A stretch of 64,000 nucleotides of DNA from Octopus vulgaris. Lineage: Eukaryota. Position 1 is the first letter of the stretch, and every line of letters starts with the position of its first letter. Under the pieces are notes generated by a model. It worked only from the letters and a program-made list of their open reading frames with translations, made no database searches and was not told where the DNA came from. Below, piece by piece: positions 5,744-55,954 of this stretch. The stretch spans positions 121,024,001-121,088,000 of the forward strand of contig OX597818.1 of assembly GCA_951406725.2 (NCBI GenBank). Direction: 5' to 3'. A program made the translations under genes and the position numbers.

Positions 5744-7699
5744 AAAAATCTTTGAATAACGTATAGCCTATGCCTGGAAAAAGGCATAATTGTCACAGCT
5801 GGAATGTGCTTAAACACTGTACTGCTCAATCAATGCTGACCTGGAACTAAACCACAATTACCCACTGCGCTGACACCCAGAAAGCCATTGGATGAAAATG
5901 TAGAGATGTGTATGTGTGTGTGTGGTTATTACTTAGCACACTCTTGAAAGCTGCCTTCTTGAAGATTTGGTTGACACGCCAACATTTCGCTAAAATTGGC
6001 ACCAAAATCAGTGTAAAAGAACAAACCAGAAACCAAGCACGTATCTGAAATGGAAGGCAGAGTTAAATGAGGAAAAAACTGTCTCGAATATGAGATCAAG
6101 TGAATGGAAATTATTTTGTTATTTACGAGCTCAAAACCTACTGCAAATGTGGCTATAGCACCTACTTACTGCAAGAGAACTGCTAGGAGTTTTAAGAAAA
6201 GACGACAGACATAGGTAAAATGCACGTGCAAAGGGCCCCAAATAAATGCATAAATAAATATGAATTTATTTCGACCAAAACCAGTGAAAAAACATGTAAA
6301 GAATGTGGACCGCATCACCTTTCGTTTTTTTGTTTTTTTTTTACAGAATTCCCCATTTTCGTGTTTGTCTCCACCATCACCACTTGACAGCCGGTGTTGG
6401 TGTGTTTATGTCCCTGTAACTTAGCGGTTCGGCAAAAGACACCGATAGAATAAGTACTAGGCTTTAAAACAAAATAAGTCGTGGGGTCAAGTTCTTTGAT
6501 TAAAACCCTTCAAGGTGGTGTTCCAGCATGGCCGCGGTGAAATGACTGAAACAAATAAAAGATTAAAAGTGTGTGTGCGTTCTTGTGTATGTGTGTGTGT
6601 GTGTGTTAGCACTATCTCCGCCAACGTAAATTAAACTTGATCAAATATTCATCAAATACTTTTTTACTTTCTAATTTCACTGTTGTTAAATGCTTTTTTT
6701 TAATTTTCAGGAAAATTTCAATAAAACATTTGCATTCTCCATTTCCCAAGAGACATAAGCGTGTTTTTCACGCATTCAAGCCATTAAAAGTTTTCATGTT
6801 ATACGTCATCTGTACGTTCTATTTGGTCACATGATAAAGTATGTCGTCTGCTCGCTGTATTTGCTCCTCCTTAGTTAAAACACATCGCAGCTTCCTTGAA
6901 TTTTCAAGGAATTTCTTCCACCCACGGACCTGAGAGTAACTATGTACCACCTTGCAAAATTTTTCTAAGAAGCCCTGAAAGTTTATATAATTTTTTTTTT
7001 TTTGTAGGAGTGGCTTACTTACGAACCACATGGTTCCGGTTCTGTCCCACTGCGTGGCACCTTGGGCAAGTGTCTTCTACTATAGACTCGGGTCGACCAA
7101 AGCCTTGTGAGTGGATTTGGTAGATGGAAACTGAAAGAAGCCCGTCGTATGACATGCTTTCATGACATGAAAGTATATGTGCATGAATGAGAAATAGGAA
7201 GAGAGCGACTGAGAGATAAGGGGGAGACAGACAGACAATCACATACACAGAGAAAGGCACAAAGACAGACAGGCACACAGGCAGACAGGCATACACAGAC
7301 AGATGCACACACACACACACACAGGCTAACAGATACAGACAGACAGACACACAGAGAAAGGCACAAAGACAGACAGGTACACAGGCAGACAAGCACACAG
7401 ACAGACAGTCACACAGGCTGACCGATACACAGACAGACAGAGATTCAGAAATAGAGGCAGGTCAATGAAAGCTCAGTAAGAGTTCTGATAATAACAGCAA
7501 CAATAGTTTACCTGGCATAGCAATGTTGCTGCAAAGCTGTGATATTGAGTATAGACTTGGAGACCATAAATGAGACAACAGCTATTTGATAGCATACTTC
7601 CAGTGCAAGTCACTGCATTCAGATGTGGGCTTGACATTTTGATTAATCTATATGTGAGTAAAAAAAAAAGAGTCATGTAATTAGAAAGGAAAGGAAGCT

Positions 7700-14053: not shown

Positions 14054-14098
14054 GGCAAAGGTGCATATATGACAGACTTCCCCGTAGTTTCTTTGAAT

Positions 14099-14311
14099 GA
14101 GCGAAACACCTAAGCCCCACGCGGCTCCGGCAGAAGGTAATGGCGAACTTCTGCTGACTCTTTCGCCACAACTTTCTCTCACTCTTTACTCCTGCATCTT
14201 GCAGCTCACCTGCTACGGACCGGCGTCCCATCCAGGTGGGGAACCTATACGCCAAGGAAACTGGGAAACCGGCCCTTATGAGCCAGGCGTGGCTCGAGAA
14301 GGAACAAACAA
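14099..14311 (+). mobile_element. Headless family-B-related SINE at the duplication junction (duplicate 38023-38235)
   Basis: GAGCGAAACAC...CTGCTACGGACCGGCGTCCCATCCAG...GAAACTGGGAAACCGG parallels 15849-15970; tRNA head is missing. Confidence 0.75.
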
Positions 14312-15129
14312 TGATTGGTTAGGATAAATTTAGAGTTGGTGAAACGATAGCAGTTTAATGATATCTACAATGCTATTTTACTAATATTTAGCAGCGAAGT
14401 ATCCTCATTGTTTACAAATGTCCACTGTATTATTAGTCGAATAAGAAATGTACAGGAGACTAATATCTGCTGTCCATGTAAAATTTCGAACCAACTGGAA
14501 CAGCCCTATGTAGACACTCTACCTTCTAGAAATAACATCCTAATCTCCTTCAAATCACATCCTACCATTCTAAAACGGGTAGAACATTTACATTGGGTAG
14601 CATTGTCCCCGGTACATTCTTCGTTCTCAATGATTAAGTTCAGCAGAATAAGTTTTAGAGTAATATCCTAAATTTATTTAATTATGTTATTCTTTTTCAA
14701 TCACTTAAGTACATCTATCCTCGTGTATCACAGATGTTTGGTTCCAAAATAAGAACGTGTTAAATGAATAAATGATAAATGAATAATAAAACGTGGAGAA
14801 AATAGATTTCATTCTGAGACCCAAAGTTGTCCTGGTTACTGTGTATAATCGCTGGAGGGCACCCTTGACTGACCTAACTATTGAATGTACTATGTTACCT
14901 CGTATCGGTGAGAAATGAATTAGTGATAAACGAGGATAGAAGTATATTTATTTTTGTTTCAGATATTTAAAGCTTCCATTTAAAATAATTTAAAATTAAC
15001 CAGTAGAATTAATATTCTACTGGTTACTTTTAATCATTTGAAAACGATCATTTTACTCGTTACAGTAAAATATTATTTGCTTGCATCTTTGCAAACTTAT
15101 GACTATTTTTATTTTGTTTAATTGCTTAG

Positions 15130-15302
15130 GTCCTGTAGATGTATGCAAAGGTAAATCTGGAAGTTATCCAGACCCAGTCTCATGTAAGAGCTTTTACATA
15201 TGCACGAATGGAAAAGGGTTTACTGCCTTCTGTCCTCCTAATCAGTTATTCGATCATGTTTCAAATAGTTGTGTTGAATCATCTCGGGCCAAATGTTCAT
15301 GA
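15130..15302 (+). CDS. Terminal exon encoding a chitin-binding type-2 (CBM14/peritrophin-A) domain
   Basis: Acceptor TTGCTTAG, phase 1; C-x12-C-x5-C-x9-C-x12-C-x7-C with YPDP..C..FY.C and CP..LFD motifs; TGA; AATAAA at 15340 and 15419. No upstream exons recognised in the unit. Confidence 0.85.
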
Positions 15303-15756
15303 GTTTCTCCAAGAAGACCACGAATCAATCTTGGAAATTAATAAATTTGAGAGTTTTTATCAAGGATTACCCATAGCAGGAAATTTTATTTCCAGTCTGT
15401 TGGTAAAATATTGTATTTAATAAAATATAGTATTAAATTTTATGAATATTTAAAATGCATTAAGTTTAATTTGTTTAAACTTGATTAAAAATCATTTTGT
15501 ATTATCTTAAAATGCTTTTGTTTTTCTTGCAAGTTGCTGTTACTTGAGTTAGTATAAATAAGACTGGGGTGTAAGTGTCCAATATCCAAACTTTATATTC
15601 AACCAATACCACTGTGAAGTCAATGGTCAAAATTTTTTTGTTAAAGGATCCAGTTAACCTGGCTATAAATAGGCAAAACAGTTCACCTAATATATTGATG
15701 TAATAGCTCTGATGAATTAAAATTTCCCAGTATTTAAATTCTGTAATACTTCATGA

Positions 15757-16017
15757 GTGGAGGCGCGTGGCTTAGTGGTTAGGGTGTTGAACTCATGATC
15801 GTAAGGTTGTAGTTTCGATTCCTGGACCAGGCGATGCGTTGTGTTCTTGAGCAAAACACTTCATTTCACGTTACTCCAGTCCACTCAGCTGGCAAAAATG
15901 AGTAATCCTGCGACGGACCGGCGTCCCGTCCAGCTGGGGAACACATACGCCATTGAAACCGGGAAACCGGGCCCATGAACCTGGCTAGGCTTTAAAAAGG
16001 TGCATTTATTTTTTATT
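15757..16017 (+). mobile_element. tRNA-derived SINE family B with 13-bp TSD (duplicate 39681-39941)
   Basis: tRNA-like head GGCGCGTGGCTTAGTGG...GTTTCGATTCC; TSD TAATACTTCATGA at 15744-15756 and 16018-16030. Confidence 0.85.
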
Positions 16018-16146
16018 TAATACTTCATGAAGGTAAAGAATATAATTTTGTGGCCATTTGAAATAAAAAAAATTTAAGTGAAAAAATTGGTGGATTTTTT
16101 TCTCTTACTACTTGATAAATACTTATAAAGATTTTATCCTATTTTT

Positions 16147-16149
<3 letters not shown>

Positions 16150-16200
<51 letters not shown>

Positions 16201-16283
16201 CATACACAGATATATATATATGCACATATATATATATACATATGTAAATATATATATATACATATATACATATATATACATAT

Positions 16284-16340
<57 letters not shown>

Positions 16341-16341
16341 G

Positions 16342-16425
<84 letters not shown>
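16150..16425. repeat. (TA)n-(GA)n compound microsatellite
   Basis: Direct reading. Confidence 0.95.
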
Positions 16426-16429
<4 letters not shown>

Positions 16430-16726
16430 CTTCCATGCAGTTTTTGTCCATCATGTTCAGTCACAAGGCATTGTTGTCCCGCGGGTATTAGTAGAAGACC
16501 TATACTTATGGTCTTATGGTGCTGCATAGGAGGACCGAAACCATGTAGTTGCAAAGTTAGTTTCTTGTTTTAAACAAGAAATATTGGTAGAACATTCTCA
16601 TCAAAAGTGTCGTAAAATACAAACATAACCACCTGACATGTTTATCTGGTATGGTTATTTACAGGTAGAGCAGTTAGTTCTTTATGTGTGAACGTTCAGT
16701 GAGAAAGGGAATATTTATGAACACTT

Positions 16727-16887
16727 GGCGCAGATGCAGCTGTGTGGTAAGCAGCTTCCTTCCCAACCACTTGGTTCCGGGTTCAGTCTCACTACGTGGC
16801 ACCTTGGGCAAGTGTCTTCTACTATAACTTCGGGCCGACCAAATCCTTGTGAGTGGATTTGGTAGACGGAAACTGAAAGAAGCCCGT

Positions 16888-16922
<35 letters not shown>

Positions 16923-17145
16923 ATTTGTTATTTGTGTCTGTGTTTATCCCTCATACCGTTGCTTGACAACCGATATTGGTGTTTACGTCCCCGTCACTTA
17001 GTGGTTCAGCAATAAGTGATTGATAGAATAAGTTCTAAGCTTACAAAGAATAATTCCTGGGATAGATTTGTTCGACTAAAGGTGGTGCTCCGGCATGGCC
17101 GCACTCAAATGACTGAAACATGCGAAAGAAAAGAATAAAAGAATA
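16727..17145 (+). mobile_element. SINE family A (duplicate ~40654-41074)
   Basis: Same consensus as 12257-12660. Confidence 0.85.
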
Positions 17146-18680
17146 ATTGATTCAAAATCCAAATTACAAGTTGTATTTGTACTCACAGTAATGGATACTC
17201 TTGCTTGTGTTACTAAACCTCTACGTGATAATCTGCAAAAGCTGGTATTTTCAGAAAAAGAAAATGTCCAGCTGACACGCCCGTAACACACTTAATGTAT
17301 ACAAGCAGTAAGTAGAACAATAAAGATATGCAAGACTGTTTAAAAGATTTAACATGTAGCTCTTTACCCATGTTTTATTTCAATTCCAGTAATGGAGATT
17401 TATTTCTTTGTTAGAAACCCACTCCATTTTTATGGGGGGAAAGGTAAATAATTAATCAAAAACTGAGACTCACACAGACACAGTCATATATGATAAATAC
17501 AGCAGGCAATGTATTTGACTTATAATTCTGGTTTAACTACACCATTATGTCGTGGTTATTCATTTCTTCAAGTGTATCTTTACTTTCGTCAAAGTATTTT
17601 GACGGACTTTGCGATGCTTGAATAGTATATACAGTTTTTTGCTTATCTTTTTTGCTTGTCTTACATTGCTTCTTTCGTTTCGTTCTGTGTCTAGGAATTT
17701 TACTATTTACAGCAGGGTATAATTTATCATTTGCAAGAGTAATAATATTTTCTGGTGATGTAGCACAGTCTTTTTTCACGTAATGTTTTTGTTGGTTAAA
17801 TGTTAAAGTAGGTGTCCATGTGGGTATATAACTACTGACGTAAGAATACGTATCAGAATCATCAGAGAGGTCATATGATTGGGTTATTGACCCAGCAATA
17901 TCGTTCTTTTGGAAAGGAATAGAGTCTTGTACCCATGAGTTTTCCGTATGAGATATATTCAGGTCTTTTGAGATGGAATCCTTCAGGGTAGAACTTAAAT
18001 CGTGAGCTTGTGTGAGATCATTCGCAATAGAATCTCGCAAGTATGACAACTTTTTGCTCACTGGCGATACTTTATAAGAAGCTTGTCCATTTCTAAAGTT
18101 TGTGTCTTGACATTGTTCTTCCTTCGTCCACTTGTCTGTAATATCTCCAACTGAAGGTTGACGTATGAATATATCCAACATTCCTCTAGGGAGCTCTTTG
18201 TTGTATTCGTTCAAGTTTTCTGCTGATTCAGTCCCTTCCTCTGTTGGAATATTGCCACTTATTTTATCATGACAACATCTTATTGAGGAAGAACTATCAA
18301 TTTCACCGGAATGTTTGCCACCGTCTTCAGAGGAAATCTGCATCAGTTTTCCAGTCGCTGTTGCTAAATGTTGCTGCAAACTGTGAATCAGAAGTTCTTT
18401 CTAAAAATATAACAAGAGAAACTAATAAACAAAATTTTAGCTACATATTTATTGTCATTGACATAGTTATAGAAAAGTTAGCAATAGATAAGGTTAGTTG
18501 GGACACGATAAAATTTTAGCTTTGTACCTGTACGTGAAACAGATACCAAGCCAATGAGAGACACTCTACACGGTAGTACAGCTGCAAAGGTTCTACGGAT
18601 ATACTCTGCTGTCTTAAAGACGGAAAGGATGCATTCGATAATTGCAATCCTTAAAAAGGATAAAATAATCACATTTCGAA

Positions 18681-18760
18681 TCATAGACCTTCGGTAGTCA
18701 TAGACCTTCGGTAGTCATAGACCTTCGGTAGTCATAGACCTTCTGTGATCATAGACCTAT
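18681..18760. repeat. 17-bp tandem repeat TCATAGACCTTCGGTAG (3 perfect plus decayed copies)
   Basis: Direct reading. Confidence 0.9.
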
Positions 18761-18825
18761 GACCTTCTCTGATCTTCTGTGGAAAGGTTGATCGGTAACT
18801 AAACAACTACAAAAAGCAACCATAA

Positions 18826-19057
18826 TACCTATTTCTTTACTACCCACAAGTGGGTAAACACAGAGAGGAAAAACAAGGACAGACAAACGGATTAAGTCGA
18901 TTATATCGACCCCAGGACGTAACTGGTACTTAATTTATCAACCTCGAAAGGATGAAAGGTAAAGTCGACCTCGGCAGAATTTGAACTCAGAATGTAACGG
19001 CAGACGAAATACGGCGACGCATTTCGTCCGGTGTGTTAACGTTTCTGCCAGCTCGCC
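18826..19057 (-). mobile_element. SINE family C
   Basis: Reverse complement of 20086-20320. Degenerate copies at ~9660-9820(-), 9852-10070(+), 10210-10350(-), 19320-19490(-), 62160-62345(-), 63437-63560(+), 63878-64000(-). Confidence 0.85.
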
Positions 19058-19249
19058 TAACCCTAACCTTAACCATAATACCAACACAGAGACAGTAACT
19101 GAGTATTTATATTACATACCAGCATGGTGGGAAGAGTTGTGGTTGATAGGTATTGAAGTGAGTTGGACTTCATGGAGATACAATGAAGTGCATGTGAGCG
19201 AGTTCATCGGTGTATAGATTGATTATTGGAAAGGAAACAGATGGTGTTT

Positions 19250-20990
19250 TTAGGTGAAGGCAATTTGATTGTTAATCCCTGCTGGATTAGTAGTGATTAA
19301 TCAGAAAGCAAAATGTGGCCAGCAATTTCGGGAGAAGGAGTAAGACGATTATATCGACCCCAATATTCAGTTGGTACTTATATTATTTTTTCGAGCTCGA
19401 ATGTATGAAAGGCAAAGTCAACCTCGGCAGAATTTCAAATCAGAATGCGAAGCATTTCACCCGGCGTGCCAGCAATTCCGCTCGCTCGTCGCTGTGATGT
19501 AGTTTATAGTATTAGCAAGAGACTGGAATTAGACGTATACAATACCATGAATAGTGACATGCAAGTAGGCGGAGCCGATGGGCCAACTGAAAGTGATTAC
19601 CTTGTGGATCTTGGAGAGGTAGTAGGTACGAAGATGATGGGAAAATATGATGTACAGACGATGTGTTCAATGGATATGTGAGGAAGTATTCTTATTCATG
19701 GTTCTGGCGTTGCTTTTCTCTTACCCCTATTTCGATATTCTATTATTAAGATGATAAAGAAAGCAATGTAACTGTAATAACGTGATGAGATAAAGATATG
19801 TGAAGATATATGGAAGAATCTACAGTGTTCCCCAGGAGAGAGGTCGAGGAATTGTTTGAGGTTGTGCTGCAAACCACAGATGCTTTTCTGATACATACAA
19901 GAGTTGAAACGGTCGGTCATATGGAAAGGCAAACTAGATTCGTGTTGCGTAGAGAGGTGATGTCCTGGATGAATGTATTGGCATTGTCTGGGGAACGAGA
20001 TCAGGCATAGCATCCAGGTTTGGTGTGGTGAGGGGTGTTGAAGAAACTGTAGAACAGTCAGTCATATAATTTATGGTCTTCATAAGGTGGCGAGCTGGCA
20101 GAAACGTTAGCACGCCGGGCGAAATGTTTAGCGGTACTTCGTCTGCCGCTACGTTCTGAGTTCAAATTTCCACCGAGGTCGACTTTGCCTTTCATCCTTT
20201 CAGGATCGATAAATTAAGTACCAGTTACGCACTGGAGTCGATATAATCCACTTACTCCGTCTGTCTGTCCTTGTTTGTCTCCTCTGTGTTTAGCCCCTTC
20301 TGGACAGTAAAGAAATAGGTATTTCGTTTGCCGCTACGTTCTGAGTTCAAATTCCGCCGAGGTCGACTTTGCCTTTCATCCTTTCGGGGTTGATTAAATA
20401 AGTACCAGTTACGCACTGGGGTCGATGTAATCGACTTAATCCGCTTATCTGTCCTTGTTTGTCCCCTCTGTGTGTAGCCCACAAGGGGCTACACACAGAG
20501 GGGACAAATAGGTATTTCGGTGTCGATAAATTAAGTACCAGTTGCGTCCTGGAGTCGATCTAATCGACTGCACCCCAACTCACTTCTCTAAACATTTCGG
20601 GCTTTATGCATAGAGTAGAAAAGAATTTATGGTCTTCATAGTCTGATTGCCATCAAAAGGTGATTAGGAAAGCTGTGAGAAGTGATGGGGTCGGATTTGA
20701 AAAGACTAATGATCCAGATATGGAAGTAAGGTGGTGTGATGCTAGTGAGGGTGAAGGGTAATTTGTTAGTGAGCAATAAAAATGGAGATATCCAGAAAGT
20801 TAACAGGTGCTAAGTATGATACATGTTAGTTCTAGAACAAGTGGGAGAAGTTCTTCGAAGAATATCATCAATTGTATAAAATGATAAACCTGGAGCTTCT
20901 TCTATACCGGAAAAGCTGGTCGGTTGAAAGTTGATCATTTGGGGGAAGGAGGCGTTGGACATCTTACACAATAAACATAATCCCAAAGGC
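19250..20990 (-). mobile_element. Highly decayed Penelope-like retroelement, interrupted by SINEs (duplicate ~43180-44920)
   Basis: Ordered minus-strand remnants FYTIDDI (~20870), VNFLDISI (~20790), CQYIHP...[10 protein letters not shown]...EH (19980-19820), [12 protein letters not shown] (19300-19265). Confidence 0.4.
20085..20623 (+). mobile_element. Compound SINE family C insertion with 17-bp TSD (duplicate 44015-44553)
   Basis: Three tandem partial units sharing (GAGGTCGACTTTGCCTTTCATCCTTTC)...AAGTACCAGTT; TSD AATTTATGGTCTTCATA at 20068-20084 and 20624-20640. Confidence 0.85.
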
Positions 20991-21015
20991 CTGTATCTTC
21001 AATTCTGTGTGGGAA

Positions 21016-21062
<47 letters not shown>

Positions 21063-21621
21063 TGTACCGTTGTGTGTGTGCCTTTTGTAATTCCCCCCCT
21101 ACACCTTTTGACAACCAGTGTTGGTTTGTTTACGTCCCCATCACTTAGCAGTCCGGCAAAAGATATCAATAGAATAGGTACCAGACGTGGCCACAGTCCA
21201 ATGACCAAACCAAGGATAAAAGAGATAAATAAATAAAAAAACAAAAGGTAGATCAATGAAATACTAACTGCTTGCATGGATCTTTTCAGGGCCGAGTTTT
21301 CTACAACTAAATGACACAGTTCTTCATAATTAGGTTCTCTTTTGCAATATGTTAAACGCTTAACAGCGGTAACAGCAGCTGGGGAATCTAATTTGTCGCT
21401 TTTACTTTTTCTCCACAATAAAATCTGAAAACATTAAAAACATTTAGAAATACAATTTGAAATTCAGGTCTGACAAGGTTACTGCTTCGAATGTGATAAT
21501 ATATGACCCCGTAGATATTCTATGGTTTAATTAAAAACAACTGTTAAGTATCGACGACTAATGTGACAGGTGCGCGCACATATACGAACACCCTCACTCT
21601 CTCACACACACGCAGCTAATT

Positions 21622-21677
<56 letters not shown>

Positions 21678-21772
21678 AGCCAGTAGTGTTTGTATGTATG
21701 AGTGGTTATATATACCATTAGCGTCAATTTGAATCACTTTTTTCCCACGCACTTTATTTTTCTCACTCTTAC

Positions 21773-22088
21773 CTCTCTCTCTCTCTCTTTCTCGGCATCT
21801 CTCTCTCTCTTTCTCAGCGTCTCGCTTTCTCGGTATCTCTCTCTCTCTCTCTTCCTCAGCGTCTCTCTTTCTCTCTTTCTTAGCATTTCTCTCTCTTTCT
21901 CGGCATCTCTCTCTCTCTCTCTTTCTCAGCGCCTCTCTTTCTTAGCATTTCTCTCTCTTTCTCGGCGTTTCTCTCTCTCTCTCTCTCTCTCTCGGAGTCT
22001 CTCTCTCTCTCTCTCTTTCTCGGCATCTCTCCCTCTCTTTCTCAGCGTCTCTCTCTCTTTCTCGGCATCTCTCCCTCTCTTTCTCAGC

Positions 22089-22130
<42 letters not shown>
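21773..22130. repeat. CT-rich satellite, ~18-20-bp units CTCTCTCTTTCTC(G/A)GC(A/G)T
   Basis: Direct reading; continues between and after the LINE insertions (22720-22820, 24100-24275, 291-426). Confidence 0.9.
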
Positions 22131-22132
<2 letters not shown>

Positions 22133-22719
22133 CTGCACGCGATTGTGCAATGCCCGAAGGTGACTGAACTCTGGGCTTATGTCGAACACCTGCTGTCGCA
22201 TTCGAGAAGTGTACAACTGTCGAGCGAATCTGTAATGAAGATAGTTCCGCCGACCTTCCTGAATAGGGAGGAGCGAGCCTGTTTCCTCTCGGTAGTTGCT
22301 ATGGCGAAAGAAGTAGTGTGGAAGACGAGAGTAAAAGGAATTGCAACAGGCATGTTTATCTCCAGTCTCGAGCTAATCGACTTTTTCGTTTTCCACATGA
22401 AACGGAAAATAAGGCTGGAGAAGAAATGCCTGTCGCAAAGTGTGTTTCGTAAAAGATGGAAGTCTATAGCAAGTATGTTGCGAGTGAAAGAACCTGTTTA
22501 ATCAAGAATGTGAAAAAGGAGAAAGCAAAGTCTTCAGTGTGAGTATGTGGTTTGTGGGGTCAACCACGTCCTCCGCTTCATTTTTTGTTATTCACTCATT
22601 ATCATTTAATTGTATATATTTTAATTATTTGTTTATTCATGTTTCGTCTCATTCGATACCCTGACCCAACGTTTGTTTTGTCCCCTCTTTTTCTCAACTT
22701 TATGGTGAATAAAGAAATA
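22133..22719 (+). mobile_element. 5'-truncated Tx1/L1-like LINE, short insertion
   Basis: ORF2 C-terminus (LHAIVQCP...RVKEPV*) plus 3'UTR, embedded in (CT)n on both sides. Confidence 0.8.
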
Positions 22720-22788
22720 CTCTCTCTCGACGTTTCTCTTTCTCTTTGTCTTTTTCGGCGTCTCTCTCTCTTTCTCAGTGTCTCTATC

Positions 22789-22820
<32 letters not shown>

Positions 22821-22821
<1 letters not shown>

Positions 22822-24099
22822 GAAGCTGTCCTTGAAAGGGAGGGCGGAGGTTGCAGAAGTGTTTATCGCCTCTGTAATCACTTACCGCCTAACCGTAGTG
22901 CCTTGCCCCGATTCGTGGCTGAACAAACTGGAACGCATGCTCTTTCGCTTTTTGTGGAGGGGCAGCAGACCTCTTGTAAGGCGCTCTATTTGCTGCCAAA
23001 AGCCGCTGGAGGGTGGGTTAGGGATGCCGTGGCTAAAAATGCGCAGACATGCGCTCAGGCTTAGGCACCTCTGGATTTACCTGGACGGTTAGCAGGTGTG
23101 GTCTCCGTTTGTCAAGCTGTTATTTCCACAGTTCACATCGTTTAACGAACTGAACCCATGAATCAAGTGTAGACCGAGGTTGGGCATGTAGCATGCAGAG
23201 TGCTATCAGGCACTCGTGCTTCTCTCCCAGTCGGGCAACGCCGGTGGCGGGGGTACTACCTCGTTCTTCTATAGAGGGTTAGTAGAGTTTAAGTGAGACG
23301 ACGTCCTAGGAGAAACTCTGGGCTTCGACGAAAATCAACTGGCCAGCCTGTTCCAAAGAACATTCCGTCCGGGGCCTATGGATAATTACCAAAAGTCCCT
23401 GGCCTGGCAATGTTACAGAGGAGCTTTACCGGTTCGAGATAAGCTCTTTAGACATGGGTGTGCACCTTCGCCGGTTTGTGCAAGATGTAAGAGGGACAGG
23501 GAAACTGTCCTGCACGCGATTGTGCAATGCCCGAAGGTGACTGAACTCTGGGCTTATGTCGAACACTTGCTGTCGCATTCGAGAAGTGTACAACTGTCGA
23601 GCGAATCTGTAATTAAGATAGTTCCGCCGACCTTCCTGAATAGGGAGGAGCGGGCCTGTTTTCTTTCGGTAGTTGCTATGGCGAAAGAAGTAGTGTGGAA
23701 GACGAGAGTAAAAGGAATTGCAACAGGCATGTTTATCTCCAGTCTCGAGCTAATCGACTTTTACGTTTTCCACATGAAACGGAAAATAAGGCTGGAGAAG
23801 AAATGCCTGTCGCAAAGTGTGTTTCGTAAAAGATGGAAGTCTATAGCAAGTATGTTGCGAGTGAAAGAACCTGTTTAATCGAGAATGTGAAAAAGGAGAA
23901 AGCAAAGTCTTCAGTGTGAGTATGTGGTTTGTGGGGTCAACCACGTCCTCCGCTTCATTTTTTGTTATTCACTCATTATCATTTAATTGTATATATTTTA
24001 ATTATTTGTTTATTCATATGTTTCGTCTCATTCGATACCCTGACCCCAACGTTTGTTTTGTCCCCTCTTTTTCTCAACCTTATGGTGAATAAAGAAATA
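22821..24099 (+). mobile_element. 5'-truncated, dead Tx1/L1-like LINE, longer insertion
   Basis: FRFLW, PLEGGLG and CCHC knuckle CARC...[10 protein letters not shown] typical of L1/Tx1 ORF2 C-termini; several in-frame stops between 23090 and 23300; flanked by (CT)n. Confidence 0.85.
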
Positions 24100-24207
24100 C
24101 TCTCTCTCTTTCTCAGCATCTCTCTCTCTTTCTCAGCGTCTCTATCACTCCCTCTCCCTTTCTCGACATCTCTCTCTCTTTCTCAGCATCTCTCTCCTTT
24201 TCTCGGC

Positions 24208-24275
<68 letters not shown>

Positions 24276-27200
24276 GGTAATGTAACTGATAGTTGGATGT
24301 CAAATATACGAGTGACAGAGTAAGATGATTAAATATTTTACTGATGACGAATTGGATGCTGTTTACATGATTTATGACAAAATGATTGATGGTAGGATGC
24401 CTGATATAGAAGGAGTGATAGATTGTAGGATCGATGAATATTGTTTTATTGACTATTGATCTGATTATGATTAGGTGATGTAGGTATTACGAATGATGGC
24501 AAAGGAACTGATAGAATAGAATGGCGGTATGCATAGATAACAAATGATAAGATCGCCAATAAGATTGATTGGTGAGTGGTCTATTATTTGACGTTTTATC
24601 TGTTTAATTGTCAAATATTACATGATCTAATATTTGTTAGTCGACTTTATATGATGGTTTAATATTTACTAATTAAGTATTTTGTGGGTGAATAGTATCT
24701 TGTGGTCTAATAATTACGTCTCAACTCTTTGCTGCTTTAATCTTTAGCCATCCGTTGACTTACTGTTGATGCTTTTACTATCATTATGAGTATTCTGATT
24801 TTAGAATTTGTATACTCTGTCTCTGCAAAAGACGATAACAGGATTGGCGCAAGGAAGATCATCAAATTAAACACTGTATCATAAAATTAGTAAAAGCATT
24901 TGAAAGAGCCTTAGATCACAATACCGAAGTGTATAACATTTATTATGTCTTAAGTGTATATATTAATTGAAATCAAAATCAAATTCCATGACTGGCATCC
25001 GTGCTAGCGGGGTGCAAAGAGCACCATACAAGTGTGATCGTTGACAGAGCAGCTAACCGGCCTCCGTGCCAGTGGCACATAAAAGGCACCATTCGAATAT
25101 GATCGTTACCAGCGTCGCCTTACTGGAACTTGTGCCCGTGCTAGTAGGGTGCCAAGAGCACCATCCGAGCGTGATCGTTGCCAGAGCAGCCAACTGGCTT
25201 CCGTGCCGGTGGCACATAAAAGGGCACCATTCGAGCGGGATCGTTACCAACGTCGCCTCACTGGCACCCGTGCCGGTGGCATGTGTAAAAAGATTCGAGC
25301 GAGGTCATTACCAGTACCGCCTGACTGGCCCCCGAGCCGGTGGCACGTAAAAAGCACCCACTACACTCTCGGAGTGGTTGGTGTTAAGAAGGGCATCCAA
25401 CTGTAGAAACTCTGCCAGATCAGATTGGAGCCTGGTGCAGCCATCTGTTTCGCCAGCCCTCAGTCAAAATCGTCCAACCCATGCTAACATTAAAAGCAGA
25501 CGTTAAACGATGATGATGAGGAGGAGGATTCTAGCCTGGTTAGCTTTAGCACAGATCAGTAAATGTTTTGTTTACTGATTTATATATCTGAACAAGTCAG
25601 AGACTGACTGAGAGTATTAAGGGCCCTCGGGCATAACTGTTTACCGGGCCCCTTTGAATGTGTGTTTTAGTAGAGTGAACATGTAGAGTGCAGGCCCCTC
25701 AGAGCTCCGGGGGCCCTCAGGCAGTGCCCGATTTACCGACGGCTCAGTTCGCCTTTGGAACAAGTATTCTCAGCTTGGCTCAGATCGCCTGGGGTTTTCG
25801 TCAAATGAGGTTGAAACATCGTGCCAGGTGATTCTTTGGCATTTTCATTTTGAAATACATCTCTAAGATGAATTACTACAATTAGTACCATTCCACATTT
25901 GTATATACGTTATAAATGTACACACCTCAGTACTTTTAATGAAGGTTACTTCAGTTAATTTTTTATTCCTATTCATTATTTTGTTTTATTTTCTAACTGA
26001 TTTGTCTGTCATACTGATCTTCCCGTCATGATAAAAAGTGTTTTTAAATAAAATTTAACATCAGTTCGTAAAATGTGACGAAGAAGGACTCACCTTAGGT
26101 ATGAATATAGCAGATTGAGTAAATAAAGCAAATAGCCAAATTATGACTGTAAGACCAGAATTCACCACAACAGGCTTTTCTCGAAACAGGTGCCAAAGAG
26201 CAATGCTACTGCTGCACAAGATGAAGACCGTCAGAATTATCAGTATCATAGGTTTAGCATCGTCCATTGAAGGTAAAGTAATGTTACGAATTTGCCAGGC
26301 TACATATAAGCCGAATGACAAAACGCTTCCTTTATAGATAAACAATAATGACATCCATATGTATTCGAACTCACAACAACATCTGGGTACATTGATGACG
26401 CTGGATGCATTCATGTTAGATCTGGATGTTAAGTTTTCCTGTAAGTATAGGAATATCACTGAACAATTTTACTCAAAATTGTTCGGTTAAAGAGCGGTTG
26501 AGTTATTTCTCGTAATGTTAATAAATTTAATGATTATTTGGCAATTAGATAAAAGAGAAACATTTATTGGAAAATTTAATAAAATAGAATGCTTATTTGT
26601 CAATTTAAATATAGAAAAACTATTATTTGGTAATTTAAGTAAAAATGATTTTTATCAATTTAATCAACTGTAACTGTAGACTATATTGCGAATTTATTCA
26701 TCTGTATAATATAATATACACATAACGCACACTCACACACACACCGACACACTATAAGAGCGAAGTATTTGAAGCATCAAAATTGGCGTCAATAGATTAG
26801 ATTAAGAAAGTAGATATACTTTCATGTACCTCGAGGTTATATTGTATTTAATAAGACCATAAAATTATCATAATACTTTTTCTGGCTTAATCAGAGAAAA
26901 GTGCCGCTCTTATAGCAAAGCAATGAAGCTGAATGCTCTAGTTAACTCTAGTTAACTAAAACAAGGACAGATATCTGAGCTGACAACTATAGTTACATAA
27001 AATCATTTTTTAATAGAAATCATCGTAACATGTTAACTGGAGCCAGATGAAATTAACTTCGCGTCATATACGAACTCAGGGCTAATCGCTTGTTATTTTA
27101 TATGTACTCTAACAAGCTTTTTTCTTTGCAAATAAGAATTTACTCGACAGCCATTGAAGCTGATACTTAATTCTATATACTGGATTCTCCCAGATATCAG

Positions 27201-28325
27201 TAAACTATGGAATTTTGGCAGCCGCCTTTATATCTTAGGAATATGAAAAGTACCACACATTAGAAGTAGGTTTCTACTTGGCAATAAAGGGCCCTCTGTG
27301 GTTGCTCGGCTTACGAGAAATAGCAGCCAAATATCTCCCCCCCCCTCTCTCTTTCTCTCTCTCTCAGCCGTCGTAAAGAAAAGACAAAATGGGCGATGTA
27401 GACCTTGGCATACAAAATAACAAGATGTTCGCGACTGGAATATCATTGACCCTCGGTTTGTTTTTTTAGAGCTTATATGAGAATAAAAGTAACTTCAAGA
27501 GTATTGAGTTCCCAGAGTTAAACTTGCGATACAGTCTCAGTTTTCAATTGTTGTTATATATCTTGTTTTCTAGATCGGGAATGGGAAGAATGCCATGTAA
27601 TCTCATATCTATAAACATTATAAATCTAGGATCCTTTTCAGTTTGAACGGCAGTTTTTTCTAGCGGTGTCATATGAAATTGTCACCCATAATTATGACCC
27701 TAGTATCGATCTGTTACATTTCAATCTGTTTTAGGGTTAGGGTTAGTTAGGATTAGGGTTTGGGTTAGGGGTGAGGGGAAGGGTATCTTTTTTTCTTCAG
27801 AAATGTAAATAAACCCAATCTGTTTCTTAAACGAGGGACATATGCATACGGCACAGAATGTTTTCACCTCAATGGACGTCATTGATTGGTTGAAATTGCA
27901 GAAATTGAAGAAAAAAACAACAAATATCTTACAAACTATAGAATTTTCTCAATAAAGCCAAGAGAAAAAGATGTTTTATAAACACATTCTACCAGTATAC
28001 GAAGTTTAAAAGTGTTTAGTTACGTGGAAATTATTTTTAAAAACTGCCGGTCAAACCGGAAAGATCCGAAATCTAATAAACATATATAAATCTCACTTAC
28101 TTTGGTAATTATTGGAATAAATCGATGCTTTAATGGATCCAGAGCTTGCCAGAACGTCATAAAAATCATGTCTACAGATAGATTTGCTCCAATGAATATA
28201 AACAACCGCAAATCTTTAATAACCTGTCAAATCACATGTGCAAAATTAAATCAAATTTTACTGAAATTTCAATCATTATTATTATCATTATTATTATTAT
28301 TATCATCATCATTATTATTATTATC

Positions 28326-28356
<31 letters not shown>

Positions 28357-31300
28357 ATAGTAGTAGTAGTGGTGGTGGTGGTGGTGGTGGTGGTGCGGCT
28401 AAGTTTTCTTTAAAATTTGTTGTTTCATTAGTTGGTTTAGTAGACATTAGCTATGGAGGAAAAAATCCAAAATTATTATTTAATGCGGCCAATATTAGTC
28501 GAATCAACTTCTAGTTGATGGTATTTCTGGCGGACCGTTTCTATTTAATAACTCAACTGAATAATCCTTCATTATTTCTTTCTCTGCGACGTTAATGCTA
28601 TCAACACGTCTATATGATATAGTATTTCTTGGCATAAGATGAAGATGTCATTGTTTGTTGGTTTCAAAACATGTGTGAAAAGTCTGGCTGCATCCGAAAA
28701 AATATATATTATGAAACAAAAATAAACACAAAATTTATTACACGAATCTGTTGCCACCACGACAGTCAACTATTTAACGCTGAACACGAGTTTGATGTTG
28801 AATACATCCACGAATTTTCTGCTCAGATAGCTCTTCCCAAGACTGCAAGACGGCTTCGTGCAATTCATGCCACGCTGTAGGGTTTTTCAGTTCAACTTTA
28901 TCGACCAAAGTTAATAATGATTCTGCTAATTCCACGTGTAAACATATGCTGAATGAAACTCACTGAATAAATCTTAATTAACTGTGTTGTCAATTGTATG
29001 CGCCTGACATATGCTAACGTGTATGCAGCCAGACTTTTCACACAGAGGATACATTTTAAGAGTTATTGTTATGATTATCTATCTTTGAGATGACAGACTT
29101 ACAATTTACGTTTCAACAACAACTATCGGCGGTGTATTTTTCGTTTGTCACTGTTATTTATGACATCGTTCGTGCGTTTGTACTGGTTTTAAGGTTTTAG
29201 GGTTATGGTTAGGGTTTTAGGGTTTTAGGGTTAGGGTTTTAGAGTTAGGGTTAGGGTTAGGGTTTTAGAGTTAGGGTTAGGATTTTACGGTTAGGGTTAG
29301 GGTTGTCATAAATAACAGTGGCAAACGAAATATACACCGCTGGAAGTTCTTGTTGAGAAACAACAGCAGTAATTTTATTCAGCTGAATACACGTCATTGA
29401 TTGGTTGAAATTACCGAAATAGGACAACTTTAATGTTAAATTTTCTCAAAAATGCTAAGAGTAAAAGATGTTTCATATGACACACTCTACCAGTGTCCAA
29501 AGTTTGAAAGTGTTTCGTTACAAAAAAATGATTTTAAAAATCTGTAGGTCAAAAGGTAAATATCCAAAAATCTTTGAATAACGTATAGCCTATGCCTGGA
29601 AAAAGGCATAATTGTCACAGCTGGAATGTGCTTAAACACTGTACTGCTCAATCAATGCTGACCTGGAACTAAACCACAATTACCCACTGCGCTGACACCC
29701 AGAAAGCCATTGGATGAAAATGTAGAGATGTGTATGTGTGTGTGTGGTTATTACTTAGCACACTCTTGAAAGCTGCCTTCTTGAAGATTTGGTTGACACG
29801 CCAACATTTCGCTAAAATTGGCACCAAAATCAGTGTAAAAGAACAAACCAGAAACCAAGCACGTATCTGAAATGGAAGGCAGAGTTAAATGAGGAAAAAA
29901 CTGTCTCGAATATGAGATCAAGTGAATGGAAATTATTTTGTTATTTACGTGTTGGTTCTCGAGCTCAAAACCTACTGCAAATGTGGCTATAGCACCTACT
30001 TACTGCAAGAGAACTGCTAGGAGTTTTAAGAAAAGACGACAGACATAGGTAAAATGCACGTGCAAAGGGCCCCAAATAAATGCATAAATAAATATGAATT
30101 TAATTCGACCAAAACCAGTGAAAAAACATGTAAAGAATGTGGACCGCATCACCTTTCGTTTTTTTGTTTTTTTTTACAGAATTCCCCATTTTCGTGTTTG
30201 TCTCCACCATCACCACTTGACAGCCGGTGTTGGTGTGTTTATGTCCCTGTAACTTAGCGGTTCGGCAAAAGACACCGATAGAATAAGTACTAGGCTTTAA
30301 AACAAAATAAGTCGTGGGGTCAAGTTCTTTGATTAAAACCCTTCAAGGTGGTGTTCCAGCATGGCCGCGGTGAAATGACTGAAACAAATAAAAGATTAAA
30401 AGTGTGTGTGCGTGTGTGTGTGTGCGTTCTTGTGTATGTGTGTGTGTGTGTGTGTTAGCACTATCTCCGCCAACGTAAATTAAACTTGATCAAATATTCA
30501 TCAAATACTTTTTTACTTTCTAATTTCACTGTTGTTAAATGCTTTTTTTTAATTTTCAGGAAAATTTCAATAAAACATTTGCATTCTCCATTTCCCAAGA
30601 GACATAAGCGTGTTTTTCACGCATTCAAGCCATTAAAAGTTTTCATGTTATACGTCATCTGTACGTTCTATTTGGTCACATGATAAAGTATGTCGTCTGC
30701 TCGCTGTATTTGCTCCTCCTTAGTTAAAACACATCGCAGCTTCCTTGAATTTTCAAGGAATTTCTTCCACCCACGGACCTGAGAGTAACTATGTACCACC
30801 TTGCAAAATTTTTCTAAGAAGCCCTGAAAGTTTATATAATTTTTTTTTTTTGTAGGAGTGGCTTACTTACGAACCACATGGTTCCGGGTTCTGTCCCACT
30901 GCGTGGCACCTTGGGCAAGTGTCTTCTACTATAGACTCGGGTCGACCAAAGCCTTGTGAGTGGATTTGGTAGATGGAAACTGAAAGAAGCCCGTCGTATG
31001 ACATGCTTTCATGACATGAAAGTATATGTGCATGAATGAGAAATAGGAAGAGAGCGACTGAGAGATAAGGGGGGAGACAGACAGACAATCACATACACAG
31101 AGAAAGGCACAAAGACAGACAGGCACACAGGCAGACAGGCAGACACAGACAGATGCACACACACACACACACAGGCTAACAGATACAGACAGACAGACAC
31201 ACAGAGAAAGGCACAAAGACAGACAGGTACACAGGCAGACAAGCACACAGACAGACAGTCACACAGGCTGACCTATACACAGACAGACAGAGATTCAGAA

Positions 31301-31924
31301 ATAGAGGCAGGTCAATGAAAGCTCAGTAAGAGTTCTGATAATAACAGCAACAATAGTTTACCTGGCATAGCAATGTTGCTGCAAAGCTGTGATATTGAGT
31401 ATAGACTTGGAGACCATAAATGAGACAACAGCTATTTGATAGCATACTTCCAGTGCAAGTCACTGCATTCAGATGTGGGCTTGACATTTTGATTAATCTA
31501 TATGTGAGTAAAAAAAAAGAGTCATGTAATTAGAAAGGAAAGGAAGCTAAAGAAGAAGAAGAAGAAGAAGAAGAAGAAGAAGAAGAAGAAGAAGAAGAAG
31601 AAGAAGAAGAAGAAGAAGAAGAAGAAGAAGAAGAAGAAGAAGAAGAAGAAAGAAAAGAAAGAAAATAGAGAAATGGTGACTTTTCTAAAGTTGATTCAAC
31701 ATTAGACATTGTTTCTTTCCAGAAGGGTTTTAAATCAGAAATTATTTGTTTGGGGTGATTGTGTGGTAAATAGCTTCCTTACCAACCACATGGTCCCGGG
31801 TTCAGTTCCACTGCGTGGTACCTTGGGCAAGTGTCTTCTACTATAGCTTCAGGCCAACCAAAGCCTTGTGAGTGGATTTGGTAGACGGAAGCTGAAAGAA
31901 GCCCGTTGTATATATGTGTATATA

Positions 31925-31977
<53 letters not shown>

Positions 31978-32085
31978 GATGAGTGTATTTTTACCTTGTT
32001 AACAATTAACACGGAAAATATAAATAAATAGTTACCAGGGCAGCAAAAATATTTGATTACACCGGCGTTAACTCCATTTTTTTTA

Positions 32086-32122
<37 letters not shown>

Positions 32123-35100
32123 GTATATGTATATGTGTATATATATATATGTATATATATGTCTGCTCAGAAATCAAGCAAACTTCAAGAATAATAGTTA
32201 AGGTGCTGGCATAGCCATGTAGTTAAGCAGTTAGCTTCACAAACACAAGCGTCTGGGTTTGATCCTATTATGTTATACCTTGGTAAAGTGTCTTCTACTG
32301 GGATGTGTAAGGTTTAGTTAACAGAAACTATACTGAAGCTCATCATATATGTGCATGTGTATATGTGTAGTTGTGCTGAAGTATTCTGGTGTAGAACAGT
32401 ACATCAAGTTGTAGCTCAGTCTACCAAAGGAGATCAAATTCATCTATTTGATAAACAAGGATCAATAAAGTTGAAAGAAGTACATGGGTGGGTGTGATCC
32501 ATTGAAATTATCTTGTTGTTGTTGTTAAGCAACAAGACTGGTAAGGATGATTAGGTGATGGTCTAGGGCTTAGGGGCGAGAGACCCCAGACCTTGGAGAA
32601 AAAAAAAAACTTTGGTCATCATGTTGTAGTTGAGGGCTCTTCGTTGACACCCGACACCACTGGGTGGTGGCCCTCGAAGTCGTTGGAAATGGAAATCTCC
32701 AGGTCCAAATTCTTGAACGGCTTGAAATTCTCTTGAAAGCAATGTCCCAGCATTTTGCATTGTGGTAGACTTAATCCATCACCCAGTTTAACATCTCCAC
32801 CTGGCTCTAAAGTGTCTTTTCATGAGTCCTTTCTGTTACAAGAATTTGAACAGGGTCTCCAATTTGAGGATAACTTCCATGCTTCTTAACTTCCAGTTAT
32901 CATTCCCACCACTACCACCACCACCATCACCATCAAAATCATCAACCATGATAATTGTTCTTTCGCCACTCAGTCAGTCATGATAAATATAAAACCAGAA
33001 ACCTGATGAATGAAATTGACAGGAAAAATTAAAAGCATAAAAAGAGAAAATAATTTACCTGTGTTTTCTATAAAAGATATTGAAAGCCAAGAAGTATATA
33101 GACACAATGGTACCCGTGGTGGCCAGAAAGATTGAGAGCCAAAATAGTTCCTGAGTTAAAGGTTTGTCCATTTTATTTCAAACATCCATTGAGTATGTTC
33201 CACTTCACTACAAGACAAAAAAAAACTAAATCAAGAAATTTATAGAATGTGATTTATTAATATTATCGCTACTGCTATTATTATTACTACTCTTCATAGG
33301 CTGTTACTGACAACCAATCAGTATCCTCGTTAGCAGCTGCAGTGCCGTTTTCATTATCATCACCATCATAGTCGTTGTCATCATCTTCATCAACATCAAC
33401 ATCATCGTTGTCATGGTCAGCATCTCTAACAACACAATCTGCACAATCATTACTGACATTAATATTGATTTCTAACAGACACAACACAGCTTGTCAAATT
33501 TTGGACAGGTTTGAAATTGATCCCAGTAATTCACTGGTACTTTATTTTATCGATCAGCAGAATAGTGAAAGATTATGTTGACCTTGGGGAATTTGAACCT
33601 AAAACATACTGAGCTGTAACTAAATACCATAAGGTGCTTTGTCTGACACTCTAATGATTCTACCAAACCACCATCCCTAACTATCATCAATATCACTGAT
33701 CCACAAGGCAGCAAGTTAGCCGAACCATAAGCAAACTCAGCAAAATGCTTAATGGCATTTTGTCTGTCTATACATTCTGAGTTCAAATTCTACCAAGGTC
33801 GACTTTGCCTTTCATCCTTTCAGGGTTGATGAAAATAAGTACCAGTTGAACACTGGGGTCGATGTAATTCACTAACCCCTCGCTTGATATTGCTGGCCTT
33901 ATGCCAAAATTTGAAACCAATATTACTGGTCCACTATATTACTATCATCAGACCAGCATTACCAAAATTAATGTCAGCTAGAAGTCACCTCTGTCTTCGA
34001 CAAAAACCAGTAACAATAATAACAAAGCCTGCAGTTTTTCACGGGAAGGAGTTAGCTCCAAGGACTTGAATGGTACTTAATTTTATTGACCCTAGATGAA
34101 AGCAAAGTTGACCTCAATTAGATCTGAACTCAGAATATCAAGAGCCAGAACTAATATGGCAAGTTTTTTTCCAACACTTAAGCAATTTTATCAGCTCACT
34201 GTCTTAACAATAATGATTACTGCAGTAGCAACAACAATATCAAGCACTTAGGACATGTAAGAGAGAGGCAACATACTCTGATTGCCACACCACAGACTAC
34301 ACAACAAGTCTTTGTTCATACGTAGATCACATAACATTTCACAATGAAAATAAACCTCATACACCATGCATTCACTATCTCTTACAAACCACAAATTAGT
34401 TTTCTTCTATCTCACTTACAAACCACAAAACAGTTTTCATTATGACATTACAGGTCTCATAACGTCTTCATTTCTATTCTATAAACCACCCAACATAACT
34501 TTGCTATCACACTGCAGGCCAGACATGTCTTCACTCCCATGCAACACTTCACAAAGCATGCCTTCACTCCTGTACTTCGCACCACATAATATCTTCATAC
34601 TACACCACACATCACACATATCTTAACTACCTCACAACAAGCCACACATCTTCACTCTGCACTATACACCGCACAATATGCCTTCTCTCTGAACTACATG
34701 CTTCACAACATGGTTTCACTATCACACTACATGTCACACAATAGCTCCATGATTTTCAGTGTCTTAGTCAAAAAAGGACAAGGTTCCTTGTCCACTTCGA
34801 ACACTTCCAAAATTAGTAGGAGGAAAGTACTGAGACTTTAGTTTCAATACTTAAGGCAACCACAGACCAGACAGTGGTATTAAATAGGGAAGGGATGGAT
34901 TAAAAGTAGCACACTTCACATTGCACATGTCCTCATTAACATACTACAACTTATATGATGTTCTCCATTCCACACTACATCCCATGCAGCATATCTTCAC
35001 TGCCATATTATTTGCTACAGTGCTACACAATCTTCTATCACATTAAACAATTACACATGTTCTCAATAGGTGCAGGAGTGGCTGTGTGGTAAGTAGCTTG

Positions 35101-37743: not shown

Positions 37744-37787
<44 letters not shown>

Positions 37788-37877
37788 TGCATACTGGAAG
37801 AGCTTCTGACCCTAGAAAAACCTGTCTCAACAAAGATTTGTCTGATCCATGTAAGCATGGAATGGTGAATGTTAAAG

Positions 37878-37931
<54 letters not shown>

Positions 37932-39053: not shown

Positions 39054-39226
39054 GTCCTGTAGATGTATGCAAAGGTAAATCTGGAAGTTATCCAGACCCA
39101 GTCTCATGTAAGAGCTTTTACATATGCACGAATGGAAAAGGGTTTACTGCCTTCTGTCCTCCTAATCAGTTATTCGATCATGTTTCAAATAGTTGTGTTG
39201 AATCATCTCGGGCCAAATGTTCATGA
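39054..39226 (+). CDS. Second copy of the CBM14 terminal exon
   Basis: Same translation as 15130-15302. Confidence 0.85.
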
Positions 39227-40070: not shown

Positions 40071-40126
<56 letters not shown>

Positions 40127-40209
40127 CATACACAGATATATATATATGCACATATATATATATACATATGTAAATATATATATATACATATATACATATA
40201 TATACATAT

Positions 40210-40356
<147 letters not shown>

Positions 40357-40814: not shown

Positions 40815-40851
<37 letters not shown>

Positions 40852-44945: not shown

Positions 44946-44990
<45 letters not shown>

Positions 44991-45547: not shown

Positions 45548-45617
<70 letters not shown>

Positions 45618-45904: not shown

Positions 45905-45948
<44 letters not shown>

Positions 45949-46756: not shown

Positions 46757-46799
<43 letters not shown>

Positions 46800-52252: not shown

Positions 52253-52286
<34 letters not shown>

Positions 52287-55899: not shown

Positions 55900-55954
<55 letters not shown>

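Follow-up and report, generated by a model that had tools for sequence, protein, structure and literature searches.

The loss of a splice donor in extra copies of a GPR156-like receptor gene of Octopus vulgaris is real and varies between samples. With a probability of roughly 70%, the locus is a polymorphic partial tandem duplication in which two copies, A and B, are redundant, probably promoterless and neutrally decaying next to a third, intact copy, C. Among the readings offered by the first-pass annotation of the window (the whole analysed stretch of 64,000 nucleotides), that of pseudogenes is the likeliest.

Layout and Identity of the Duplicated Gene

The tandem array consists of exactly three units of ~24 kb in the window and the 40 kb flanking it on each side. 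Seven coding exons are present in each unit, all on the minus strand and matching those of the O. sinensis protein P0002.

Unit A, starting 11,532 bases beyond the window's left edge and ending at window position 14096; its exons 6-7 lie outside the window
Unit B, 14097..38020; gene at 17537-33171, minus strand
Unit C, 38021..61977; gene at 41466-57138, minus strand, with seven coding exons and an open frame of 614 aa; promoter-proximal copy
Tandem junction, 14097..14098, with an identical junction at 38021-38022; 2-base AT microhomology between both ends

Unit C had been described as the terminal one. As the array counts exactly three units, A, which starts 11.5 kb left of the window, is terminal too. 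Copies A and B contain introns and lie, nearly identical, beside the intact gene C; the copies are >99.7% identical to each other. In the whole genome (G000), exon 3 has three matches and none further, and exon 5 has three identical matches plus one distant relative at 27%. A 1,859-base segment found in unit A only (L001:542-2400) sits within an AT repeat, is bounded by a 280-base inverted repeat, has no frame longer than 68 aa and looks like a foldback element.

P0002 carries the name [quoted passage not shown], and the 614-aa frame of copy C shows three differences from it. The class C seven-helix domain (PF00003) is matched by exon 5 (E = 1.7e-8, over the cut-off) and by exon 3 (E = 5.5e-5), the latter covering Pfam 7tm_3 positions 74-104. 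P0002 matches GABA-B/GPR156 chains with E-values down to 2e-42, and the second O. sinensis form, P0001, contains PF00003 only, without a Venus-flytrap domain. The N-terminus is short: the first hydrophobic peak spans residues 12-30, and an in-frame stop is located just upstream of the ATG. In a quick tree (157 of 169 collected proteins kept, no bootstrap, midpoint root), P0002 falls in a clade of 53 short-N-terminus rows with an SH-aLRT of 87 (97 with two more rows). Five proteins named GPR156/GP156 (fish, scallop), one GABA-B2-like protein and one unnamed/hypothetical pair belong to that clade, and two proteins named GABA-B2 fall outside it. With moderate support, the octopus gene appears to group with vertebrate GPR156, apart from GABA-B2. 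The pairwise score of P0002 is higher to GABA-B2 than to human GPR156 (148.6 vs. 119.6 bits).

According to PMC11621567, human GPR156 has constitutive Gi activity and forms a homodimer through TM5/6, which binds only one G protein. The same source names seven residues at which mutation reduces basal activity, R157 among them; R157E lowers it. The octopus R118 column aligns with human R157 (alignment through Patella P0007), and this basic residue of ICL2 is present in copy C and in O. sinensis and is S in A and B.

The O. vulgaris models P0003 and P0004 match the copies at their 3' ends, P0004 including the frameshift of A (see below). For all copies, the public O. vulgaris models start in another frame inside exon 2, jump to exon 5 and miss TM1-TM5. 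Isoform X2 of O. sinensis (P0001) is annotated as skipping exon 4. Three clade members, P0125, P0027 and P0131, have odd sequence exactly at KRV/VI (a slash marks the exon end here and below), probably gene-model errors at a shared intron position. In the literature searched, nothing was found naming GPR156 together with octopus, nor this locus, and PMC6408891 is without GPR156.

Loss of the Exon-3 Donor in Copies A and B

TM3, for the most part, and the beginning of ICL2 fall in exon 3, which covers a hydrophobic peak at residues 85-103.

Exon 3, A 5937-6044, B 29759-29866, C 53729-53836, minus strand; 108 nt, phase 0/0, amino acids 84-119
Copy C intact exon-3 donor, GTG/GTAAGT, 53727..53728, minus strand; 8 of 11 U1 matches; intact letters in run X2 and in one X14 contig
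Copy A double change, 5936..5940, minus strand; exon position -4 G>T (R118S) and donor position +1 G>C (GT>CT)
Copy B double change, 29758..29762, minus strand; identical to that of A, also in contigs of runs X1, X14 and X15
I139F in exon 4, in A (4317) and C (52093), minus strand; B keeps I, like O. sinensis

On the minus strand, copy C reads TTC AAG AGG GTG/GTAAGT, with 53729 as the last exon base and the GT at 53728-53727. Copies A and B read AAG AGT GTG/CTAAGT, with changes at 5940/5936 and 29762/29758, exactly as the first-pass annotation had described them. Across the three copies, 16 of the 18 coding donors are GT; the two exceptions, at exon 3 in A and B, read CT. The protein of O. sinensis (P0002) reads KRV/VIKD at this junction, and R occupies the column in 48 of the 53 clade rows (K in 2, S in 1, L in 1 and a gap in 1, near-identical isoforms being among the rows). 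The alleles of A and B are therefore derived, as had been proposed.

Short-read contigs of 4 of the 24 listed runs, from different studies, were compared over 29310-30190 (881 bases). X1 and X2 are DNA and X14 and X15 are guessed to be RNA; contigs of this kind drop minor alleles. The mutant allele is present in the contigs of three of the four runs (X1, X14 and X15), X14 having both forms. X1 may be the assembly's own sample and then is not independent, in which case the allele occurs in two of three independent runs. One 662-base contig of X1 shows no difference from copy B. The DNA run of a second study, X2, yielded a single contig, intact at both 29758 and 29762, and no mutant form. The mutant allele varies between samples. 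Because the short-read contigs of three runs carry the mutant letters, the donor change is real, and a two-letter assembly error is excluded; reads with GT in all copies had been named as the observation that would speak against the change, and the contigs of these three runs carry CT. Contig depth over this piece was 180.9 in X1, vs. 54.5-101.9 on seven other listed pieces, and 28.7 in X2, vs. 8.2-26.3 on other pieces, values that are no measure of copy number.

In copy B, the donor change is the sole lesion. Copy A has, in addition, a 1-base deletion in exon 7, read in the assembly, which would give a 557-aa product if splicing were normal. All three coding differences among the copies (R118S with donor loss, I139F and the 1-base deletion) alter the protein and none is silent, which, for so few events, is only consistent with relaxed selection. 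Given 74 clean substitutions, the chance of one hit on the 24 GT/AG letters is P ~0.07; the donor hit exceeds chance only mildly. Close pairs of changes are common in the array: of 14 pairs no more than 5 nt apart, 13 fall where A diverges on its left side.

A hairpin over the intact donor was considered as a template of the double change and rejected: one change extends the fold and the other breaks it, giving no clear templating. RNA editing was likewise rejected as cause or cure, the change being present in DNA. A-to-I editing cannot convert C to G or T to G.

Substitute Donors and Predicted Products

Possible substitute donors, numbered from the broken site, were scored by their matches to the 5' end of the genome's own U1, of 11; on this crude score, real donors here reach 7-8 of 11. 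More than 20 U1 snRNA genes are clustered at G000:C18:48.97-49.21 Mb.

Candidate donor +4, TAA/GTAATA, 5931..5932, minus strand; 6 of 11 U1 matches, frameshift, predicted 122-aa product
Candidate donor +60, TGG/GTGTCA, 5875..5876, minus strand; in frame, +20 aa, weak with 3 of 11 U1 matches
Candidate donor +75, TGG/GTAATT, 5860..5861, minus strand; in frame, +25 aa, 7 of 11 U1 matches, unchanged in the intact copy C
In-frame TAG, intron codon 30, 5847..5849, minus strand; retention stops after 29 codons
Candidate donor +96, CAG/GTCAGC, 5839..5840, minus strand; 9 of 11 U1 matches, past the in-frame stop, predicted 148-aa product with its stop 630 nt before the last junction

The first-pass annotation had listed three outcomes: use of +75, skipping of exon 3 and intron retention. 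Its count of 29 codons before the retention stop, the length and phase of exon 3 and the in-frame removal of TM3 that skipping would cause are all confirmed from the sequence. The list omitted the out-of-frame or post-stop sites -5, +4, +71 and +96, of which +71 and -5 also shift the frame. Site +75 is indeed in frame and adds 25 aa. As an escape route it fares less well, as it is outscored by +96, is unchanged in C, and was not seen as a joint in the contigs compared. Six in-frame open GTs precede the stop, and a score of at least 7 of 11 is reached by 58 of the 782 GT sites in gene C; an in-frame site like +75 is expected by chance in ~37% of such searches. The 9 of 11 of +96 is reached by 2 of the 782.

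Products of +96, +71, +4 and -5 would measure 119-159 aa, with stops 572-630 nt before the last junction; with retention (148 aa) included, the range is 572-2069 nt. Under the 50-nt rule, stops well before the last junction trigger decay. Transcripts using +96, +4, +71 or -5, as well as those with retention, are predicted substrates of nonsense-mediated decay. The frames of +60 and +75 are open, for predicted products of 634 and 639 aa. Two further rescues were rejected: a GC donor at the broken site has <6 of 11 U1 matches, and the in-frame GT at -3 scores 4 of 11 with the +1 change alone and 3 of 11 with both, the exonic change weakening the site.

Exons 3-6 are all of phase 0/0 and an exon-4 skip is annotated in O. 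sinensis; in-frame skipping is thus a property of the gene, not of the lesion. Loss of exon 3, and with it TM3, would probably invert the later helices. The 148-aa stub would stop short of TM4, without the TM5/6 face of the human dimer. To judge from the predicted translations, only the -3, +60, +75, +81 and +84 forms would keep the dimer face in correct topology.

The RNA-like runs were inspected for such forms. Their depths are 2-4, and introns are covered as deeply as exons. The single mutant contig of X15 (guessed RNA, third study), 29646-29899, is unspliced at both ends and runs through +60, +75 and +96. In X14 (guessed RNA, fourth study), a mutant piece covers 29698-29792 at a depth of 2.5 and an intact-allele piece 29759-29792 at a depth of 2.8 (from bin depths of 2.59, 9.17 and 4.83). 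The intact-allele piece ends at the normal exon end, and the mutant piece continues 61 nt into the intron. A piece common to both alleles, 29763-29869, is followed by 23 letters that do not match intron 2, and an intron-2 piece, at a depth of 2.4, carries the 12-base deletion of A. Since intron 2 is equally deep, the X14 reads may be unspliced RNA or DNA. X14 has no cover at 29580-29697, a gap that carries no weight as evidence. The mutant contig of X14 ends on the G of the in-frame +60 GT (copy B 29698), a hint at most, as ~1/10 of intron positions are such a G. No joint at +60 or +75 occurs among the contigs of the two RNA-like runs (depth 2.5-3.5).

Edges of the Duplication and Probable Position of the Promoter

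The left break of the duplication lies inside the last intron of a convergent GH18 chitinase gene, and its right edge lies 4.7-4.8 kb upstream of an acceptor preceding the first coding exon.

Orphan chitinase last exon (CBM_14), C 39050..39223 and B 15126-15299, plus strand; carried into units B and C
T-rich tract and TAG acceptor 36 nt before the ATG, 57175..57195 (A 9353, B 33208), minus strand

The CBM_14 exon still attached to the chitinase gene (unit A, L002:9497-9670) is 87.9% identical to O. sinensis, vs. 94.8% for the orphan copies. The differences comprise five amino-acid and three silent changes, six within 23 bases. They may reflect a chitinase that now splices to a distal copy while the proximal exon decays; alternatively, the haplotype may be divergent, the mutation complex or the assembly wrong at this point. 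The public model P0171 ends midway through this exon. In the chitinase intron, 17-23 kb left of the window (L003/L002), a reverse-transcriptase-like element of 1.3-2.9 kb is present in 99%-identical direct and inverted copies.

The acceptor suggests that the first coding exon is likely an internal exon. The observed/expected CpG ratio (unmasked) stays at 0.23-0.24 between exon 2 and 70 kb, a span that includes the breakpoint, and at 0.27-0.44 from there to 104 kb; over exons 3-7 it is 0.74. A sharp CpG step is visible inside the gene, from window position ~55000 onward, with depletion from exon 2 upstream and near-normal values between intron 2 and the stop. According to PMC9476566, octopus DNA is methylated in gene bodies and little so at the majority of promoters, and CpG-poor promoters exist (MP1). 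By analogy, the low CpG upstream resembles a methylated gene body. Between 62 and 104 kb, a search for a promoter or neighbour gene by ORF and splice-signal filters, which would miss short or weak exons, found retroelement frames only. One of these, L007:4249-7533 on the minus strand, stays open over 1,095 codons and matches endonuclease, reverse transcriptase and, weakly, PHD; it is a young LINE situated upstream of the receptor gene. By these indirect arguments from the acceptor and from CpG, the promoter probably lies outside the unit and serves C only, leaving A and B without one. The consecutive accession numbers of the chitinase and GPR156 isoforms give only a hint that the O. sinensis locus is single-copy.

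Mosaic History of the Units

When the three units are aligned, 89 of the 19,515 unmasked columns are variable, and these are unevenly distributed. In the first 3.4 kb, A differs by 1.5% from B and C, vs. 0.03% between B and C. All three units are within 0.1% over the next 5.9 kb. In the last 14.6 kb, the sites singling out A (5), B (18) and C (15) occur in blocks, with 11 runs vs. 17.4 after shuffling (P = 0.016), and the final six sites all set C apart. Along the unit's left 9 kb, B and C are the same but for 0.03-0.04%; at the right end, B is closer to A. Polarised against O. sinensis, two sites 1.6 kb apart conflict: R118S joins A and B, and I139F joins A and C. The pattern fits a two-copy array expanded by unequal crossing-over, with conversion or haplotype mixing on top. 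A LINE-like fragment is repeated within intron 5 (window 22133-24240 and 46103-48200, 94% identical, with CT-rich repeats on either side); it is there that B stops being equal to C and begins to differ from it, which makes the place a candidate crossover site.

Exon 3 lies 15.7 kb into the 24.0-kb unit, and ~65% of random crossovers would therefore double the exon 3 of the distal copy. Given this crossover mosaicism, the mutant exon could be doubled in the absence of selection. The earlier proposal that the mutant copy was the one re-amplified holds in part: the mutant exon did pass into B, but the left 9 kb of B match C, and I139F is common to A and C.

Proposed Course of Events and Alternatives

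The first duplication may have arisen through a microhomology-mediated break. Unequal crossing-over to the left of exon 3 would then have formed B from a C-type left and an A-type right part, doubling the mutant exon without selection. With the promoter and an untranslated first exon outside the unit, A and B would be transcribed by read-through or weakly. Most of their RNA is predicted either to bear stops (+96, the best U1 match, as well as +4 and retention) and be removed by nonsense-mediated decay, or to consist of exon-3 skips without TM3. Any +60 or +75 product would combine R118S with an insert of 20-25 residues in the G-protein pocket and presumably signal poorly. Several observations stand against neutral decay: a mutant allele in three of four runs is common for a dead copy; the depth of the mutant piece in X14, close to that of the intact one (2.5 vs. 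2.8), is more than a promoterless copy suggests; B bears no lesion besides its donor change; and the mutant X14 piece stops precisely at the G of the +60 GT.

The three-copy array might instead be partly a mosaic of the assembly, with fewer copies per chromosome, such as two on one homologue and a single one on the other, and with the mutant donor, though real, possibly a segregating null allele and not a lesion of spare copies alone. The unit divergence of 0.03-0.28% (1.5% over A's initial 3.4 kb) does not exceed the heterozygosity of 1.22% reported for O. vulgaris (bioRxiv 10.1101/2023.05.16.540928). A alternates between B-like and C-like blocks, the conflicting polarised sites lie close together, and run X2 has the intact form only, all of which would suit this explanation. 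Gene conversion, however, also makes block mosaics, and the new junction occurs twice in the assembly, which two ordinary single-copy haplotypes cannot yield. Moreover, B has its 18 private sites in the right 14.6 kb, and the 662-base X1 contig is identical to B, the outcome expected of a two-of-three majority. We regard an assembly mosaic as unlikely, at about one chance in five.

Far less probable is a functional role of the mutant copies, by which a stable product, in frame, with R118S and an ICL2 longer by 20 or 25 residues, would keep TM5/6, pair with the intact receptor and, acting as a decoy or silent partner, tune its constitutive Gi signal. No stop interrupts the frame before +60 or +75, +75 scores like real donors, and the RNA-like contigs of two studies carry the mutant allele. 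In X14, exon 3 continues only as the piece with the 23 non-intron-2 letters, like an exon 2-3 splice. Human GPR156 dimerises through TM5/6, and R157E, at the residue aligned with octopus R118, lowers its basal activity (PMC11621567). Against this stand the missing +60 and +75 joints in the contigs, X15 being unspliced through both, and the length of the F111-D123 loop, 13-14 residues in 49 of the 53 clade rows. The copies are probably promoterless, and the allele is absent from X2. Since a GPR156 dimer engages only one G protein, a mixed one would go on signalling via its intact half. The decoy idea of the first-pass annotation is not supported: judged by sequence, the skip and the stub would be unable to form, in normal topology, the TM5/6 dimer face described for the human protein (PMC11621567). 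In the human gene, a donor-loss allele with skipped and minor in-frame products is recessive (PMC10562426). That a segregating duplication in wild O. vulgaris is giving rise to a silent GPR156 subunit, spliced at +60 or +75, unable to couple through R118S and a longer ICL2 and taking the G-protein-free place in the dimer like GABA-B1 next to GABA-B2, with copy number tuning constitutive Gi tone in sensory cells, is a long shot. The selective re-amplification of the mutant copy, for dosage reduction or neofunctionalisation, is the least probable of all: two of the three copies are mutant and the allele occurs in several studies, but crossover geometry alone gives this outcome in about two-thirds of cases, A is a mosaic with an extra frameshift, and X2 is without the allele. 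A polymorphic partial duplication with decaying copies is preferred.

Significance and Comparison with Known Systems

The significance of the locus is modest: the type of event is ordinary, in a gene whose vertebrate counterpart orients hair cells. It carries a warning, as the public O. vulgaris models P0003 and P0004 are truncated and RNA reads are unassignable without phasing by AGG/AGT. Animals with only mutant or only intact alleles, should they exist, would offer natural variation in which the role of GPR156 in statocyst hair cells could be tested. A silent-subunit function, if true, would matter more; little supports that reading.

A polymorphic partial tandem duplication with pseudogenising copies is an ordinary copy-number variant. 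The octopus locus shares with such variants the microhomology junction, unequal crossing-over, mosaics, a truncated neighbour exon, lesions in the extra copies and variation between samples. There is no difference in kind; the gene and the species are new in the literature searched.

In the GABA-B1/GABA-B2 pair, one subunit, which is ancient, conserved and expressed, does not couple to the G protein. The pair is the model of a silent partner in this receptor family. In comparison, the octopus copies share >99.7% identity, have a broken splice site and have not reached fixation.

Like vertebrate GPR156, an orphan class C receptor without a Venus-flytrap domain (PDB 8IEB), the octopus protein has 7tm_3 only and a very short N-terminus. 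Both share the KRV(I/V)IKD loop and a match reaching the C-terminal helix (residues 15-352). The loop of the octopus protein, a mollusc member of the group, is one residue shorter than in vertebrates, and the octopus gene is triplicated. The closest parallel to the lesion is the human GPR156 variant c.600G>A, likewise a donor loss in the TM3-TM4 region of the same gene, for which PMC10562426 gives exon skipping plus a minor in-frame form in a minigene. That variant concerns the next exon of a single-copy gene and causes recessive deafness, whereas the octopus change is located in duplicates beside an intact copy.
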